Source: a virus (Duplodnaviria > Caudoviricetes). Taken from it: a DNA stretch of 34,201 nt. Positions 11,094 to 34,201 of this stretch are shown here, one piece after another. The notes beneath the pieces are model-generated. The model had not been told where the DNA came from, made no database searches, and saw only the letters and a program-made list of their open reading frames with translations. Numbering within the stretch: position 1 is the first letter of the stretch; each line of letters begins with the position of its first letter. The DNA is taken from positions 1 to 34,201 of the IMG/VR virus record IMGVR_UViG_3300032373_000071; one strand, 5' to 3'. The translations under genes were made by a program, and so were the position numbers.

Positions 11094-13001
11094 GTGACCC
11101 TCCCCGGCCCCACTGACCCGACCGCCCGAGGACGCATCCCCTTGAAACTACCCGTCAGCGTAGGAGGCAGCCCGGAGCTACAGCCCGTCCAGGTGGGCGG
11201 GCGCGAGCAGATCCGTGCGCAGCCCCCGCTGAACCTGGTGCTGTGGATGATGGACGACACGGGGCGCAGCCAGATGCCGTCCTACGACGACTTCAACCGC
11301 TGGCCGGGGACGTACCCCCACGCCTCGATGCCGCGGCTGGCCGGGTTCATCACGGAGGGCATCCGGTTCACGCAGGCAAGGGTGGACGCCAGGTGCGCGC
11401 CGACCAGGGCCGCGATCTTCACCGGCAGGCAGGGGCACCGGACCACGCTGCACCCGGACGGCACGGGCGTCGGAGACGTGATCGCCAACACGCCGGACAC
11501 CAACAGCCCCTTCCACATCGGGATCGTGGCCGAGCAGAACCCCTGGCCGGGCCTGGTCCGCGCCTCTGGAGCGCCCCACGGCACCGGGATGTTCGGCAAG
11601 TACCACCTGTACGAGTACCAGCCGGATGTCGTCACGGGCGAGGGCATCCTGAGCACCAGGCTCAACCCGCGCGCCATCGTGGACGAGGCTGGCTTTGATG
11701 TGGCACACGAATGCCTGCGCCTGGGCAACGGCCAGCCGCTCTACGGCTTCTTCAACTTCCCGTACAGCTACACGGACGCGGACGTGCATGAGGTGTACTA
11801 CGCGGGCGACTTCGAGGGCGACCTGCCGCCTGGCGCGCTGCCGCTGCCCGAGGGAGACGTGTACAGCCCGGCGTTGATGTACAAGAAGGCCACGTACTAC
11901 ATCGACGAGTGCGTGGCGGCGGGCAAGCCGTGGATCATCGACTGGGAGATGAACCTGATCCACGACCTGCTGCCCGCGATGGAGCCGGTGCAGCTCATGG
12001 TGGACCCGGCGAACCCCGATGGCGTGGAGGTGGCGCTGTTCTCCTGCTACACGCAAGCCGAGCTGATCCCGGACGCGGCGGGGAACAACGGGGAGACGGT
12101 GGACGGCGGGTACGACCGGTTCGGGCAGCCGGACGACGATCCGACCACGGGCGTCTACGGCCCGAGCGGCCAGGTGCACGTCGAGTGGCGGCGCGCGCGG
12201 GCCGCGCTGGAGGTGGTGGACACGCTGGCCGGGATGCTGAACGACTACGTGAAGGTGAACCACCCGCAGGAGTACGCGCGGACGCTGTGGATGCACTACA
12301 GCGACAACGGCGAGCTGCAACGCGCGGCGACCCCGCTCGAGACGCCTGAGTTCACGGACCTGTCAAGCGGCCCCGGCACGCCGTACTACAACTGCATCCC
12401 GCCGACGACGACCGGCGAGGTGAGCGCGACCGTCAGCGAGCTGTACCACGTGTACTCCGACGCGAAGGGCACGACGAAGGACGAGGGCATCCTCACCCCG
12501 CTGATCGTCTGGGGCGGGCCGCTGTCCAGCGATGTGCGCGGGCAGGACTGCGCCCGGTACGTGGACGCCTGCGACTTCTACCCGACCATCTTGGACATCG
12601 TGGCCCCTGGCTGGCGCGCGACCCTGGGGGCGACGGAGCTGGCGAAGATCGACGGCGAGAGCTTCTACGAGTCGTTCTGGAACCTGGCCGCGCCGAGCAA
12701 GCAGTTCACGACCCATTGCGTCTTCGAGCCTGGGTACGTGGATGACGTGGCCCAGGAGGTCACGCTGTACGACTTCAGCATCGTGGGCACGGAGTCCACG
12801 GTGTCGTCCGAGGGCTACAAGTTCCGGCGCATCTTCGAGACCGGCGAGACGGCGCAGACCTACCAGATGTTCAACCTGGCGACCGACCCGAAGGAGACGA
12901 CGAACGTGGCGAGCGGTGGATCGGCGGCGGACGTTCTCGCCTCTGCCGAGCTGCTTGGGCTGCACCAGGCCTTCTTCGGCCAACCCTTTGTGATCCCCTG
13001 A
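11094..13001 (+). CDS. Formylglycine-dependent (S1, arylsulfatase A-like) sulfatase
   Basis: NLVLWMMDDTG, EGIRFT, CAPTRAAIFTGR (CxPxR at 11394-11408), GKYHL, SDNG, KGT..DEGI.TPLIV, DFYPTILD, IDGESF, FNLATDPKETTNV. Confidence 0.92.
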   Translation: MTLPGPTDPTARGRIPLKLPVSVGGSPELQPVQVGGREQIRAQPPLNLVLWMMDDTGRSQMPSYDDFNRWPGTYPHASMPRLAGFITEGIRFTQARVDARCAPTRAAIFTGRQGHRTTLHPDGTGVGDVIANTPDTNSPFHIGIVAEQNPWPGLVRASGAPHGTGMFGKYHLYEYQPDVVTGEGILSTRLNPRAIVDEAGFDVAHECLRLGNGQPLYGFFNFPYSYTDADVHEVYYAGDFEGDLPPGALPLPEGDVYSPALMYKKATYYIDECVAAGKPWIIDWEMNLIHDLLPAMEPVQLMVDPANPDGVEVALFSCYTQAELIPDAAGNNGETVDGGYDRFGQPDDDPTTGVYGPSGQVHVEWRRARAALEVVDTLAGMLNDYVKVNHPQEYARTLWMHYSDNGELQRAATPLETPEFTDLSSGPGTPYYNCIPPTTTGEVSATVSELYHVYSDAKGTTKDEGILTPLIVWGGPLSSDVRGQDCARYVDACDFYPTILDIVAPGWRATLGATELAKIDGESFYESFWNLAAPSKQFTTHCVFEPGYVDDVAQEVTLYDFSIVGTESTVSSEGYKFRRIFETGETAQTYQMFNLATDPKETTNVASGGSAADVLASAELLGLHQAFFGQPFVIP

Positions 13002-28365: not shown

Positions 28366-28671
28366 ATGGCCCGAAAAAAGGGAAACGTCCCGGTCGGACA
28401 GGGCCGGGTGAGTAAGAGCCTGGGGGCTGCGGACCCCCGGGCCTACCGGAACGCGCAGGCGGCCCAGGCGTCCCACCTGAATCTTGGGAAGGGTGTGGAG
28501 CGGGACTCCAGGGGTCGCTTGCGCGTCACCCCCGCGCGGCGCGTCGAGAAGGTGGACGTGGCCGGCGTCGAGGACACGCAACAACTGGCCGAGAACACGG
28601 CGGCGGCCTTCAACAAACTGGTGGACGAGCTGCGCGAGAGCGGAGCCCTTGACGACGGGAAGCAACGATGA
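28366..28671 (+). CDS. Small head/tail fibre-like trimeric protein
   Basis: Start moved to ATG 28366; C-terminal AAFNKLVDELRESG resembles head-fibre trimerisation helices. Confidence 0.55.
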   Translation: MARKKGNVPVGQGRVSKSLGAADPRAYRNAQAAQASHLNLGKGVERDSRGRLRVTPARRVEKVDVAGVEDTQQLAENTAAAFNKLVDELRESGALDDGKQR

Positions 28672-29369
28672 TCGGAACAGGAGCACTCTTCGGGCTGGGG
28701 GCGATGAACCTGGGCGGTTCGGTGCTCGGCGGCATCTTCGGCAAGCAGGGCCAGGACAGCGCGAACGCGGCGAACCAGGACGCGCTGAACCGCGCCCTGA
28801 TCCGGCTCCAGGAGGGGTGGGCGAAGGGCGAAGGCGCACACATGAAGGGGATCGGGGCGCTGAAGAAGGGCTTCGGCCAGGCCCAGGGCGCTCTCCAGGG
28901 CCAGGGCGGTGCCGCTCGAGCGCGGCTCCTCCAGCGCGAGTCTCAGATGATGGGGACTTCGGACGCGCAGATGGCGAGCCGGGGGCTCTACAGCTCGACC
29001 CGCGCGATGGGCCAGCGCCGCGCGATCCACGACCAGACGAACCTGGGGCTCGCCGGGATTGACGAGTCGGTGGGCCGTCAGCAGGCGCAACTCTTCCAGA
29101 ACCAAGGGGTTACGCTCGGACGCGCCTATCAGAACCTCGCCTCCATGTACGGCGGCTACGCGGGGATGCAGGCGCGGACGGAGATGGCGAACCAGCACGT
29201 CTCCTCGAACATCGGCCCCCAGATGGCGACCATGATGGGCAACCTGACGAAGCTCCTGGCCTTCGGGCTCTCGAACCCGGGCGGCACAGGCACAGCCTCA
29301 GTGGGTCAGACGGCCAACGGCTACGGGCCTGGCGACTACGGCCCCCTCCAGTCCAACGGGAGCTTCTGA
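28668..29369 (+). CDS. Putative DNA ejection/pilot protein
   Basis: Gly/Ala/Gln/Met-rich, hydrophobic Gly-rich N-terminus, located after nozzle. Confidence 0.65.
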   Translation: MIGTGALFGLGAMNLGGSVLGGIFGKQGQDSANAANQDALNRALIRLQEGWAKGEGAHMKGIGALKKGFGQAQGALQGQGGAARARLLQRESQMMGTSDAQMASRGLYSSTRAMGQRRAIHDQTNLGLAGIDESVGRQQAQLFQNQGVTLGRAYQNLASMYGGYAGMQARTEMANQHVSSNIGPQMATMMGNLTKLLAFGLSNPGGTGTASVGQTANGYGPGDYGPLQSNGSF

Positions 29370-30943
29370 TGGCCGGCATCATCGAACACGGCCCCGTTGC
29401 TCTCGGCGTGGCGGCAGAGGCGTTCGGCGCTGGCGCAGGCGGCGGCCTCGCTGGGGTGAACGAGCGGAGCGCCTACGAGCGCGGCATCCAGCAGATCAAG
29501 GCCAACCGGATGAAGCTCGAGGCCGCCCAGATGGAGCTGGACGGCGAGCGCGAGCAGATGGCGCTCCGCGACCAGGCCGAGGGCCTGCTGGCGAACTACG
29601 GGCCGGGTGCGCTCGAGGCCGCGCAGTTCCAGGACACGGGCGAAACCGGCGTCCCCGGGGTCAAGCGGGCTCCGATGCAGATGCCACAAGACCTGTGGGA
29701 GCTGTACGTCCAGGGGGACGCCGAGACCAAGGAGCGGATCAAGGGCGATTTTGACTTCGCCGTGGCGCAGGCGAGCCATGCAGCTGTCACGCAGCACGTC
29801 TCAGAGCAGGGCATGGCGATCCTCGCCGGTGAGGGCGTGTACGGAAGCGTCGAAGAGGGTGCCGAGCCGCCCCCGGAACTGCTCGCGGCCCAGCAGGAGG
29901 TCCAGCAGATCCTCGAGGAGGTGGATAAGGGGATCCTCGACCCCTTCGCGGCGAACGAGCGGCTGAACGAGATCGACCAGGAGCTATTCCAGGCCCGGCA
30001 GACGGGCATGGCGAAGGCGGGCGTTCACGCGGCCTTCCGCCAGAAGATCACCGGTGCGCTCACGGCGGACGATCTTGGGCAGACGAACACCGACCTGGCC
30101 CAGTACTACAGCGGGTGGCAGCACGCCTACCAGAAGGGGGAGATCACCGAGAACCAGGCGCTCGCCATCCTGAACCTGAGCCCCGACCAGCTCGAGGAAA
30201 TCGGCAACCTGTTCATGGGGACCGTGGGCGCGCGGATGCCCCAGGGATCCGTCATGCAGCGCGGCCAGGCGAACCTCGATGGCCTCTCCATCGGCCTTCC
30301 GGGTGGCGAGCAGCAGGCCCAACCGGGCGCGCAGATGCCCCCTGGCCCCGACGTGCCGGCCCCGGAGAGCCCTGACGAGGAGGTCTCTGTGCTCCAGCAG
30401 CCCCCGCCGAAGGGGTGGAAGCCGCCGCGGTGGATCACGCCGGGCACGAAGGGCGACTTCGCCAAGAAGCACGTGGGGGCCGTGCGCGGTGCCGTCGATG
30501 CGCTCGCGCAGGGGAACCACGCCTCGCTGACCAACTCGATGAACCTGATCCTGGGCGACGACCCCGACGAGCGCGAGGTCGCCATGCTCTCGGAGGTGCT
30601 GCGGCGCAGCAAGGACTACCTGGTCGAGCAGGTGGGCACGCTGGACGACTACAAGCCCCTGGGGGACGCGATGACCCCGAAGGTGAAGGAGATCATGCGC
30701 GGGGTCTGGGACGAGCAGAAGGAGCTGATCCTGGGCTCCAGGAAGAAGGCCGCGCCCGGCCCCGGCCCGGCAACTCGAGAAGGCTTGGAGGGCGTCTCGG
30801 AGATCGACCCGGAGAGCACGGCCACATCGGTCTCCAAGAAGAAGAAGGCCAAGAAGAAGAAGAAGAAGACCTGGGAGGAGGTGAAGAAGCGCGGAGAGGA
30901 AGGCCGAGCCGCGCAACGCCGCACCCCACCGAAGAAGGACTAG
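29369..30943 (+). CDS. Putative internal virion/ejection protein with polybasic C-terminus
   Basis: TGATG coupling; helical Gln/Glu-rich; ends with KKKKAKKKKKK. Confidence 0.65.
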   Translation: MAGIIEHGPVALGVAAEAFGAGAGGGLAGVNERSAYERGIQQIKANRMKLEAAQMELDGEREQMALRDQAEGLLANYGPGALEAAQFQDTGETGVPGVKRAPMQMPQDLWELYVQGDAETKERIKGDFDFAVAQASHAAVTQHVSEQGMAILAGEGVYGSVEEGAEPPPELLAAQQEVQQILEEVDKGILDPFAANERLNEIDQELFQARQTGMAKAGVHAAFRQKITGALTADDLGQTNTDLAQYYSGWQHAYQKGEITENQALAILNLSPDQLEEIGNLFMGTVGARMPQGSVMQRGQANLDGLSIGLPGGEQQAQPGAQMPPGPDVPAPESPDEEVSVLQQPPPKGWKPPRWITPGTKGDFAKKHVGAVRGAVDALAQGNHASLTNSMNLILGDDPDEREVAMLSEVLRRSKDYLVEQVGTLDDYKPLGDAMTPKVKEIMRGVWDEQKELILGSRKKAAPGPGPATREGLEGVSEIDPESTATSVSKKKKAKKKKKKTWEEVKKRGEEGRAAQRRTPPKKD

Positions 30944-30946
30944 AGC

Positions 30947-33900
30947 ATGGCCGACCTGAGCGCACTTGCAGCCGACCTTATCGGGGAGGCCGCGCCGGCC
31001 CCCGCTCCCGCCCAAGACCAGGCCTCAGCCCCGGTGGGGGGGTCGGTCGATCAAACGGCCTCCCAGCTCATCGCGGAGGCTCGAGGCGAGGGGTCGCACA
31101 CCTTCATCGGTGGCGTGGCCGGTGCCCTGCATGAGGCCTACGCGGACGGCGAGTGGAAGAAGCGCATCCCGTTCACGGGCACGGCGCTCCAGGCGGACGA
31201 CCTGCACCAGCTCTGGCAGGCCGCGCGTCGGACGGAGTTGGGCGAGCAGAGCCGGGAGGACGAGGCGCTGATCCTGGCCTACCTCGCGAAGAACGAGGCC
31301 GGTGCGAAGCGCGGGATGGGGGGCACGGTCGGCGCGATCCTGGCCGAGCTGCCGACGTTCTTCGCGGAGTTCGGGGCCTCTGGTGGCGCAGCGAACTTTG
31401 CGAAGGCCGGTGGTAAGGCCGCTCTGGGCAAGGGTTTGCGCGAGGCGCTGGAGGCGTCGGCGTCGAAGATCGGCGCTCGAGTGGCGGGGGTCAAGGTCGG
31501 CAAGCTGGGCGTGGGCAAGGCGGCCCTGGGCGCGGCTGGCGCGATGGGCAACACGGCCCTCCAGCTAGGCGCTGCGACGGGCATGGGGGAGGCCGTGGGG
31601 GGCTCGAGGATCACGGCGGACGCCTGGCGGCGCGCGCTGCCTGAGTGGTCCCTCTCGGAGAACGAGGCCGGCCACGTCCACCTGGCGTTCCACACGACGA
31701 CGGGCGAGTTCGTGGACCAGCTCCCCAAGGCGATCCTGAACGAGTACATCGAGTTCCTGAGCGAGCGGTCGGGCGAAGCCCTGATGGCTGGCGTGAAGGG
31801 GGCGGCGAAGCGGGTGCCTGGCGCGGCGATGGTGGCGCAGATGCAGTCCCAGGTGGCTGAGTGGTGGGTCGCGCGCAACGGCGGGTCGGTCACGGACTTC
31901 CTGGAGCGCGTGGCGAAGAAGGGCGGCTGGAACGGCCCCGTCAGCGAGTACCTGGAGGAGCGCCTGGGCGGTGCCCTGCGGGGTGCCACGGGCGTCGAGG
32001 AGGGCGGCGTGCTCGCCAACGCCTTCCCGGCCCTCGAGCAGCAGGCTGCGGAGCTGATCGCGTTCAGCGTGCCCACGGCGGGCCGCGCTGCGATCCAGGA
32101 GACCTTCCGCAGGGATGCGACTCAGGACATGGACAAGGGGCTTACGCGCTCCTTCACCCAGGGGGAGCCGCGCAGCTTCCAGCAGATCGACGCCATCGTC
32201 GAGGCCAGCGGAGCTCAGCGCGTCCCCGCGGACGCGGAGGTGTCCCCGGAGCTGGAGGCAGCCGAGCGCGTGGCGGCCCGCCAGGGGCTCGAGGTGGTGC
32301 GGGTCCAGTCGGAGGACGGCGAGCCCATCGAGGGCTTCGATGCTGTCCTGGTCGAGGAGGGCATCGTCCTGGTGGACGTGAACGCGGTTGAGGATCCGGC
32401 CCGCCTGCTCACCGAGGAGCGGCTGCACGACCTGGCGCGGAAGGATCCCGAGTTGCACTCGGTCCTGGAGTCCACGGTCCAGGCCGGCGACTCGGCGGGG
32501 TACGGGGCCTTCCTGGGCTCCTATATGCAGACCTTCGAAGAGGTGCGCGGGAAGGAGCTGGACCCGGAGAAGGAGGGCGTCGAGGGCGTAGGCCAGTGGG
32601 GCCGCGCGATGGCCCCTCTCGTCTGGCTGTCCGAGACGAAGGCCGGGCGGATGCAGCTCTACGAGATCGTCCAGAACAACCGCAACGTGCTCGAGAAGCT
32701 GCGGGACTTCGTGGCCGGGGGCCTGAACGGTCTGGGCGCGAACGTCCGCACGACCCAGGAGCGCCGACTGGCGAAGCTCGACGCCTACCTCGAGCGGACG
32801 GGCGGCAAGGCTACGGGCGTGGACATGAAGATGAGCGGGGACGCCGACCCTGGCGTCCACCTGGCCGCTGCGCTCGCTGAGGCCGAGCCGACGACCCTGG
32901 AGCGCATCCAAGTCGGCGTGGTCCTGGGAGAGGCCCTGGAGGCCATGACGGGCCTGGACGTGCCCACGGAGCGCCGCACGCCCACGACGAGGCAACTGCC
33001 GGCAGCGGAGCGCCTTGCGCGCCTGGCGGCGGGAGAGCCGCCCCTGCGCCTGAAGGCCGGCCCCCAGCCGAAGCTGCCGGCTGCGCCCGAGGTTCCGCGG
33101 CTGACCGAGGGGTCCAGGTCGGAATCCAAGTCGGAATCCAAGCCGGTCCAAGACGGTCCAACGCGGTCCAAGGGCGATCCAACGCGGTCCAAGTCGGAAT
33201 CCAAGTCCAAGCCGGGAGGTCTTACAAAAGATCCAGAGGAAAAAGGCGGCCACCCTGACGGGCTGGCAGAGGTGTACGGCTGGACCTACCAGTCCGGCCT
33301 CACCCGCTCGAACGCCGATGCCGTCCAGGCGATGACGGACGGGCAGGATCTTGGAGTCTCGGCCCACGGGCCGTGGTCCGAGAACATGAAGAGGATCCTC
33401 GACACGGCTGCGCGAGGGGGTCACTTCATCTTCCTGGACAACGGGGCGTTCACGCACTTCAAGAAGGGCACCCAGGCCAACTGGGCTGCGGTGCGGGACA
33501 AGTTCGAGGATCTGCTCGACCGCGTTCCGTGGGAGTCCCAGGAGAACATCGTCGTCGTCCTGCCGGACGTGGTGAACGACCCTGACCAGACCTACGAGCT
33601 GCTGAACTCGGTCATCGACCTGACCTGGGACGACATCCTGACGAGCAACGCTCGCTTCATGGTGAACGTCCAGAAGCCGAAGGAGGGCGAGGCCAACATC
33701 GTCGCGGAGGCCGCGTCTCTGACCGAACTGTTCGACGACGATGCGTTCACGTCGGGCAAGTACAGGTTCGGCATCCCGTTCAACGCTGCGGCGTGGTCTC
33801 AGGAGGACGTGCTCGAGCTGATGGAGGCCTGGGAGGACCAGGGGGGGGTCGGTATCCACCTTCTCGGCGCGGGCCACCAAACGCTGATGGACCTGATCGA

Positions 33901-34201
33901 GAAGGCTAGGGCGAAGGGTCTGAACGTGGACAACCTATCGTCCGATGCGCTGCCGAAGGGTATCTCCAGGCGGAAGCGCGGCGAGGGCGGCACGGGGGCC
34001 GATGTTGCCGAGCTACAGAAGAAGCTGGCGAAGCCGAAGGCCGCCACGGCTGGCTCCGTTGAGGCGATGCGGAAGGATCTGTTCGACGGGCGCGACCTGT
34101 CGAAGGTCAGGATCACGACCCAGGCCGAGCAGGAGGACGCGGAGATGGCCGTCGTCCTGGCGGCGCGCGACATCGTGGCCCTGGGCATGGGGACCGGCGC
34201 G
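30947..34201 (+). CDS. Giant internal virion (polyvalent, DarB-like position) protein, partial; degenerate zincin plus TGT/DpdA-like domain
   Basis: ATG 30947 with AAGGA upstream; open by hand translation for 1085 codons to window end, so absent from ORF track; LLTEERLH; IFLDNGAF, VLPDVVND, IHLLGAG, SSDA. Confidence 0.85.
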   Translation, partial: MADLSALAADLIGEAAPAPAPAQDQASAPVGGSVDQTASQLIAEARGEGSHTFIGGVAGALHEAYADGEWKKRIPFTGTALQADDLHQLWQAARRTELGEQSREDEALILAYLAKNEAGAKRGMGGTVGAILAELPTFFAEFGASGGAANFAKAGGKAALGKGLREALEASASKIGARVAGVKVGKLGVGKAALGAAGAMGNTALQLGAATGMGEAVGGSRITADAWRRALPEWSLSENEAGHVHLAFHTTTGEFVDQLPKAILNEYIEFLSERSGEALMAGVKGAAKRVPGAAMVAQMQSQVAEWWVARNGGSVTDFLERVAKKGGWNGPVSEYLEERLGGALRGATGVEEGGVLANAFPALEQQAAELIAFSVPTAGRAAIQETFRRDATQDMDKGLTRSFTQGEPRSFQQIDAIVEASGAQRVPADAEVSPELEAAERVAARQGLEVVRVQSEDGEPIEGFDAVLVEEGIVLVDVNAVEDPARLLTEERLHDLARKDPELHSVLESTVQAGDSAGYGAFLGSYMQTFEEVRGKELDPEKEGVEGVGQWGRAMAPLVWLSETKAGRMQLYEIVQNNRNVLEKLRDFVAGGLNGLGANVRTTQERRLAKLDAYLERTGGKATGVDMKMSGDADPGVHLAAALAEAEPTTLERIQVGVVLGEALEAMTGLDVPTERRTPTTRQLPAAERLARLAAGEPPLRLKAGPQPKLPAAPEVPRLTEGSRSESKSESKPVQDGPTRSKGDPTRSKSESKSKPGGLTKDPEEKGGHPDGLAEVYGWTYQSGLTRSNADAVQAMTDGQDLGVSAHGPWSENMKRILDTAARGGHFIFLDNGAFTHFKKGTQANWAAVRDKFEDLLDRVPWESQENIVVVLPDVVNDPDQTYELLNSVIDLTWDDILTSNARFMVNVQKPKEGEANIVAEAASLTELFDDDAFTSGKYRFGIPFNAAAWSQEDVLELMEAWEDQGGVGIHLLGAGHQTLMDLIEKARAKGLNVDNLSSDALPKGISRRKRGEGGTGADVAELQKKLAKPKAATAGSVEAMRKDLFDGRDLSKVRITTQAEQEDAEMAVVLAARDIVALGMGTGA
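33113..33210 (+). repeat. Ten TCCA(A/G) units spaced mostly 10-12 nt apart
   Basis: TCCA starts at 33113, 33125, 33137, 33147, 33157, 33167, 33178, 33188, 33200, 33206. Confidence 0.9.

Follow-up and report, generated by a model that had tools for sequence, protein, structure and literature searches.

Deazaguanine marks in DNA are, in the literature cited here, written after replication by standalone DpdA enzymes. In the DpdA of Salmonella Montevideo, Asp95 serves as general acid/base and Asp256 as nucleophile, the base being read by Asp130 and His181, and a Gly-Gly loop determines the choice of 7-substituent in both DpdA and tRNA-guanine transglycosylase (TGT) (PMC10164549). The DpdA of phage 9g alone placed dPreQ0 in plasmid DNA in E. 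coli (PMC6884629). Polyvalent proteins such as P1 DarB are treated as injected, with DarB protecting DNA in cis, and the main text of the paper describing them names no TGT, queuine or deazaguanine domain (Iyer 2017, PMC5512222); among open-licence papers, we found none on a TGT/DpdA domain in polyvalent or ejection proteins. Here we analyze a 34,201-nucleotide (nt) stretch of a Caudoviricetes virus (IMG/VR record IMGVR_UViG_3300032373_000071; the whole stretch is denoted as the window), whose final open reading frame (ORF; 30947..34201, + strand) encodes the 5′ part of a giant polyvalent protein with an embedded TGT/DpdA-like cassette (33259..34036, +; amino acids (aa) 771-1030). We find that this cassette is an optional, swappable part of the giant phage protein, and its residues and modelled structure predict an active guanine transglycosylase. 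The explanation we favor, with a probability of about one half, is an injected anti-restriction base-swapper that would mark phage DNA at the entry stage, at low level, with a host preQ0-type deazaguanine.

The record is a single 34.2-kb contig with an estimated completeness of 82% (CheckV). The ORF encodes 1085 aa and runs off the contig end without a stop; because it is open there, it was absent from the ORF track. A sequence-only reading of the window had placed TGT-like motifs in this ORF, and all of their positions proved exact and in frame: IFLDNGAF from 33428 (Asp codon at 33437), Asp at 33566, Gln at 33671, Gly-Ile-Pro at 33770-33778, His at 33857 and Asp at 33944. The TGT-like module itself, which that reading had set at 33270-33960, is present with slightly wider borders, 33259-34036. 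With a family profile derived solely from 103 other loci, the ORF obtains 107 bits (E 5.8e-35), whereas the controls run with the same profile (n = 825; 500 shuffles, the reversed ORF and all remaining window frames) reach at most 3.8 bits, so the domain signal is not due to chance. The PHROG 887 'queuine tRNA-ribosyltransferase' profile also matches the domain (E 3.8e-7).

Comparison of the family profile with three DpdA1-type proteins yielded a probability of 97% (E 7.8e-11). All three of these proteins adjoin folE and queC or queE, and one of them (L004) is 42-45% identical to the DpdA of phages 9g and CAjan. The kinship with TGT/DpdA and the two catalytic Asp positions, both first proposed from the letters of the window, are supported by this profile match together with residue conservation and the structure model. 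In a bacterial assembly, we also observed two tandem DpdA1-like genes adjoining folE and queE (L114:9923-11664).

Conservation was counted over 173 family members under 90% identity, after removal of 7 proteins that were partial or spurious and of 7 loci comprising duplicates, DpdA1 genes, a fragment and the window itself. Loci were found with patterns that include D60 or D103; the rows that came from phmmer alone (n = 86) carry D60, D103, H200 and D229 in 86/86 cases (these numbers refer to P0004, a 242-aa piece of the ORF, and adding 771 gives the ORF residue). Asp831 (D60; 33437..33439, +), at the end of strand 3 and present in 173/173 members, aligns with the DSGAF Asp of DpdA1-type proteins and, as the counterpart of DpdA Asp95, is the predicted general acid/base. 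Asp874 (D103; 33566..33568, +), located after strand 4 in 173/173 members, is by direct alignment the counterpart of DpdA Asp130 and the predicted reader of the Watson-Crick edge. Asp1000 (D229; 33944..33946, +) on strand 8, found in all 172 aligned rows, is the predicted nucleophile and is equated with DpdA Asp256 by motif order and strand position. His971 (H200; 33857..33859, +) on strand 7 is kept in 172/173 members and corresponds in the alignment to the VHGFG His of DpdA1, which by our own count is residue 196 in 9g, its sameness with the published 'His196' being uncertain.

The base pocket differs. Gln909 (Q138; 33671..33673, +), after strand 5, is a TGT-like Gln at the His position of DpdA1 (Q in 155 and H in 11 of 173 members) and is aligned to His129 of the L004 DpdA. 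A G-I-P-F-N loop at strand 6 (33770..33784, +) replaces the Gly-Gly loop of TGT/DpdA, in an inferred register; Gly occupies the second loop position in 0/173 members, with Pro in 166/173 and Asn in 124/173. The window copy has Asn just after D60, where 161/173 members have Ser. An Arg lies 3-9 residues past the strand-8 Asp in 147/172 members, as in TGT, which suits nucleic-acid binding. The ORF has no Cys from the start of the domain to the window end, and the Ins8 insertion with the CXCX2CX22H Zn site of bacterial DpdA was not found.

Because its base-pocket loop differs, the cassette is not a DpdA1 member, and by its sequence it falls outside DpdA1 on three features: the His, the Gly-Gly loop and the full-length profile match. 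The match to phrog_887 is partial, covering profile positions 47-123 of 509 with an E of 3.6e-9, as against 1e-61 to 1e-77 for true members. DUF6610 (DpdA4) matched 1 of 43 members (E 0.0027), and membership of the cassette in the DpdA2, DpdA3 and DpdA4 subfamilies (Cui 2023, 10.1101/2023.04.13.536721) is not demonstrated. Unnamed phiST and nt-1 proteins, candidates for DpdA3 and DpdA2, respectively, gave TM scores of 0.52 and 0.49. A tree of the 173 members and 5 DpdA1 rows keeps the family together with a support of only 0.44, and we claim no order of events from it.

AlphaFold2, run on a 43-row alignment, predicts an eight-stranded alpha/beta barrel for the cassette (pLDDT 92.9). In the model the conserved residues are located at the C-terminal ends of the strands (D60, strand 3; D103, strand 4; Q138, strand 5; G171-N175, strand 6; H200, strand 7; D229, strand 8). 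TGT heads both the Foldseek and the VIA-align lists, with other barrels tying within 1-1.3 Z. The top Foldseek match is Z. mobilis TGT, and VIA-align gives aTGT Z 13.8 (root-mean-square deviation (rmsd) 3.7, 205 aligned), bTGT 13.1, DpdA (7ui4) 12.7 (rmsd 3.8, 200 aligned, ending at chain residue 268) and Cap10 (9ntn) 12.5, level with an aldolase at 12.5. A standalone member likewise gives a tie (aldolase 13.5, aTGT 13.2, DpdA 12.9). Since aldolases tie with TGT and DpdA, fold alone cannot settle the family, and the predicted assignment to TGT/DpdA is settled by sequence, not fold.

The domain is present in just 2 of the 9 orthologous giants, the window protein and P0002. P0098, which is 78-81% identical to P0002 in the N- and C-terminal blocks, is without P0002 residues 730-1090, and P0099 carries a Mom-like domain in the cassette slot (E 1.3e-14; profile built from three proteins, each matching phrog_1384). 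In two public runs (X1 and X2), contigs at 95% likeness join 33258 to 34037, with 553 other letters replacing 778 nt; the alleles differ by 75 codons in length, so the frame would be kept. The depths of the two sides of the X2 allele bubble (19.9 and 7.2) sum to those of its flanks (26.5 and 27.4), and in run X3 the cassette is held in one contig. The short side of the join is 30 letters, one under the bar for a bridge, X1 or X3 may be the source of the window DNA, and the lack of cover over the cassette in X1 is given no weight. A 30-base pattern for the second allele or the remainder of the gene matched no viral contig. We also observed a further small bubble in the assembly immediately 5′ of the cassette (33034-33147; X1 and X2) and, in X3, a cluster of 15 differences at 32230-32467, indicating that the gene is locally mosaic in the population.

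The giant is the last gene of the virion block, in the order terminase, portal-like, SU10 adaptor, long tail-like gene, two genes of 233 and 524 aa (28668..30943, +) and the giant itself. The two genes belong to no known family and are probable small and middle ejection proteins; with the giant they form a size series like that of phage JC1, whose virion block ends with gp67, gp68 and gp69 (196, 510 and 4515 aa), all found in virions by mass spectrometry (PMC9144972). A conserved N-terminal block of the giant (30947..33013, +; aa 1 to ~689) is 36-48% identical to 8 orthologues and precedes a Pro/Ser/Lys low-complexity linker upstream of the cassette (33080..33258, +). Downstream of the cassette, the last residues of the ORF (34055..34201, +) match the lead-in to the adenine methyltransferase domain of the orthologues (P0096 704-747, P0097 871-917, P0002 up to 1163); the NPPF motif of that domain comes after the lead-in in these three proteins and is found in 6 orthologues. 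Full-length orthologues (n = 8; 3434-4185 aa) go on into a DarB-like methylase, an SF2 helicase and LPD38, and a contig in run X2 extends 11,225 nt beyond the window end.

Several disparate domains in one virion-block polypeptide, of which the window holds two plus the methylase lead-in, mark the giant as polyvalent (DarB-like). The SF2 helicase and LPD38 in 8/8 close orthologues and the position after portal-like and adaptor genes uphold the DarB-like virion setting that had been suggested for it. By analogy with JC1 gp69 and with phi24B gp47, an LPD38 protein detected in virions by mass spectrometry and proposed to be ejected (10.64898/2026.04.10.717836), the giant is probably carried in the virion and delivered together with the DNA. 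The N-terminal block shows no membrane segment of strong hydrophobicity. The zincin-like HExxH site of this block (32414-32428) is degenerate in the window, reading EERLH (aa 490-494); 3 orthologues likewise read EExxH, as against HExxH in 5 others, and the processing peptidase predicted from this site may not be active in every lineage. A 635-aa gene between the terminase subunits (11094-13001, +) matches sulfatase PF00884 (E 1.4e-10), a match that is unusual in a phage and may hint at the host.

By phmmer, the family comprises 90 clusters at 50% identity, of which 38 are at least 1000 aa, including 14 of the best 19. The domain lies within an ORF of at least 1000 aa at 48/80 viral loci (80 kept from 109); among the 173 members, 76 are in giants and 73 are short proteins, many of them standalone, and the weakly supported tree implies 28 or more switches between giant and non-giant settings. 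It is also carried by 56 plasmid records, where it is standalone, fused to DUF6884 or, near traW, part of an LPD1 polyvalent protein. Comparison of 43 members with Pfam, NCBIfam and PADLOC yielded no model that describes the family, no PDB sequence matches, and the domain gave no PF01702 match. In the ESM Atlas, unnamed viral clusters match at 0.93, and 17% of the members of one of them have PF23859 DpdA, a low recognition that serves as a lead only. A word-based search for domain relatives of near length found none, and phmmer subsequently found some. Around 57 short carriers we found no conserved partner gene, the largest neighbor cluster (portal-like) comprising 6 loci. In standalone members, a helical extension at the C terminus that includes a DxTE motif is conserved (P0076 residues 236-365); giant-embedded copies lack it. 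Copies fused to InPase occur at L011, L022, L034 (with RadC too) and L087 (588-1218 aa), several near portal-like head genes, a second, head-linked setting.

Neither folE, queC nor a canonical TGT was found in the 34.2-kb record, in agreement with the sequence-only reading. Its premise that phage DpdA usually lies beside que genes was too strong, as the largest group (76 phages) has DpdA only (PMC6884629). We searched 48 carrier records, picked for length from 86 viral loci (35 at least 90% complete), and found FolE in 0/48, full-length QueC in 0/48 (2 partial weak matches) and a second, canonical DpdA in 0/48; both DpdA1 controls were positive for the que genes. In 23 bacterial genomes with a standalone copy, chromosomal queC was present in 23/23, a weak observation in that the named ones are all Proteobacteria (16 Pseudomonas).

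The TGT-like domain keeps company with DNA modifiers. It is fused to a Mom-like domain in 4 proteins, such a domain is encoded nearby at 6 loci, and other fusion partners are C5 or N6 methylases; in a viral protein of 1177 aa (L082:8570-12103), three DNA modifiers follow one another, namely C5 methylase, TGT-like and Mom-like domains. DUF6884 is a distant relative of PF03883 (PMC11701544), the family assigned to DpdC, which converts dPreQ0 to dADG (PMC12839542). These partners (Mom-like, methylases, DUF6884) and the slot exchange point to DNA as the target. Protection of phage DNA and attack on the host had both been raised for the domain; the DNA-modifier fusions and the exchange favor protection, and the inserted base would likely be preQ0 or preQ1.

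Under the favored explanation, the giant protein would, like DarB, be a late product that is packaged. Once inside the cell, its SF2 translocase would carry the adenine methylase and the TGT-like domain along the phage DNA. Asp1000 would attack the sugar, Asp831 would protonate the leaving guanine and a free host base would resolve the intermediate, so that a 7-deazaguanine from the host, probably preQ0 or something close to it, would take the place of some guanines of the incoming DNA and blunt restriction. The marking would be sparse or transient rather than a genome-wide coat. An enzyme at work on entry, ahead of phage gene expression, has no phage-made base to draw on, which would account for the absence of que genes alongside the domain. 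That a base from the host is usable follows from 9g DpdA acting alone in E. coli and from the dADG of the DpdA-only phage 7-11 (PMC6884629).

Several observations weigh against this explanation. The family profile gave no significant match to five bacterial TGTs (1.7%), the modelled fold does not single out TGT, with which aldolases tie, and the ligand of Cap10, which has the same Asp residues, is a modified protein (10.1101/2025.04.06.647259). The Gly-Gly loop is remodelled in 173/173 members and the DpdA His is mostly Gln, suggesting that the base may differ; it is uncertain because the remodelled loop is the one that sets the choice of 7-substituent. DUF6884 shares an ORF with the domain in just 2/48 viral carriers (plus some plasmid copies), and the DpdA-only phage Orion, whose host is without the pathway, is unmodified (PMC6884629). 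Four tblastn queries against 50,697 cultured phage records gave no match, nor did the putative capsid protein. Palindromic 6-mers in the window are strongly avoided (observed/expected 0.41, non-palindromes 1.0), with CGGCCG at 0 vs 42.6 expected, GGGCCC at 0 vs 27.9, GGCGCC at 1 vs 28.1 and GTCGAC at 0 vs 15.8, which argues that the window DNA is not well shielded and suggests a host rich in type II restriction systems. The same ratio is 0.76 in 9g and 0.70 in MMDA13, both DpdA1+que phages, and has a median of 0.70 (range 0.25-0.96) at 40 giant-carrier loci; since hosts differ between the compared phages, these data show restriction pressure and sparse protection at most.

Among the other explanations, the one that fares best keeps the chemistry and changes the base or the direction: the domain might insert another purine, or strip guanine or host 7-deazaguanine marks as an offensive glycosylase or eraser. 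We regard this as possible but rather unlikely. It draws on the G-I-P-x-N loop in place of Gly-Gly in all 173 members, on the full decoupling of the carriers from folE and queC, and on the frequency of offensive domains such as ART-PolyVal in polyvalent proteins (PMC5512222). The catalytic Asp pair and the Watson-Crick Asp are nevertheless retained as in exchange enzymes, and the neighbors and slot partners are protective writers (methylases, Mom). Also tentative is the idea that the injected giant rewrites DNA through an exchangeable head, with phage populations trading the transglycosylase for other modifiers such as Mom in one slot, and that the remodelled transglycosylase pocket would insert a base new to DNA or erase host deazaguanine at entry.

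Alternatively, the domain might act late, marking progeny DNA at low level before or during packaging as in a DpdA-only phage. The gene lies within the late block, the DpdA-only phage 7-11 contains 50 dADG per million nt (PMC6884629), and 73/173 members are short, many standalone. This timing, which we consider unlikely, leaves unexplained the repeated fusion into packaged giants (76/173, with the changes on the weakly supported tree given above) and the plasmid polyvalent protein near traW.

A host tRNA target is improbable. The injected domain would then remove or exchange wobble queuine-type bases, shifting or blocking host translation, as the tRNA enzymes among the top structural matches and the Gln at the TGT position might suggest; its nearest sequence kin is, however, the DNA-acting DpdA1 rather than TGT, its partners are DNA modifiers, and the domain has no Zn site and no Cys. 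Least probable is a reader or decoy that binds deazaguanine-modified proteins or free bases and so blunts deazaguanine-based defence, like Cap10 of type IV CBASS, which has the same Asp residues and is among the tied structural matches (Z 12.5), as against a QueC-like partner in 0/48 carriers, the Arg 3-9 residues after the strand-8 Asp (147/172), which fits nucleic-acid binding, and the slot exchange with a Mom-like enzyme.

If entry-stage marking is correct, a packaged writer that uses a host base would represent a new timing of anti-restriction, common to phages and large plasmids. It bears on what DpdA-like genes do when they are without que genes, and on a large family (90 clusters, 56 plasmid records) without a Pfam, NCBIfam or PADLOC model. 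The natural borders of the 260-aa cassette and the natural with/without pair (P0002 and P0098) make it directly testable.

Compared with known systems, the cassette shares with phage DpdA1 (9g gp3, CAjan; phrog_887; Hutinet 2019, PMC6884629) the DSGAF Asp, the second Asp, the strand-7 His and a compact barrel, and DpdA1 can likewise work without phage que genes (PMC6884629). It differs in having Gln for His and G-I-P-x-N for Gly-Gly, in being embedded in giants and in occurring on plasmids. With bacterial DpdA (Salmonella Montevideo, 7ui4, PMC10164549) it shares the barrel and the counterparts of Asp95, Asp130 and Asp256, and the PF03883-related DUF6884 fused in some family members recalls DpdC; unlike bacterial DpdA, it has no Ins8/Zn site and no dpd cluster was seen, and it is encoded by an invader rather than a defence island. 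TGT (PF01702) and Cap10 (9ntn) have the fold and the Asp residues in common with the cassette, as well as the Gln at the TGT position, whereas the cassette is without a PF01702 match and a Zn subdomain, and the QueC-like Cap9 partner of Cap10 was not found in the 48 carrier records. The likeness to P1 DarB and other polyvalent proteins (Iyer 2017, PMC5512222) lies in the giant at the end of the virion block, in orthologues with an adenine methylase, an SF2 helicase and LPD38, and in domain mosaicism among orthologues. Judged by its sequence, the cassette would work like DpdA yet is not DpdA proper.

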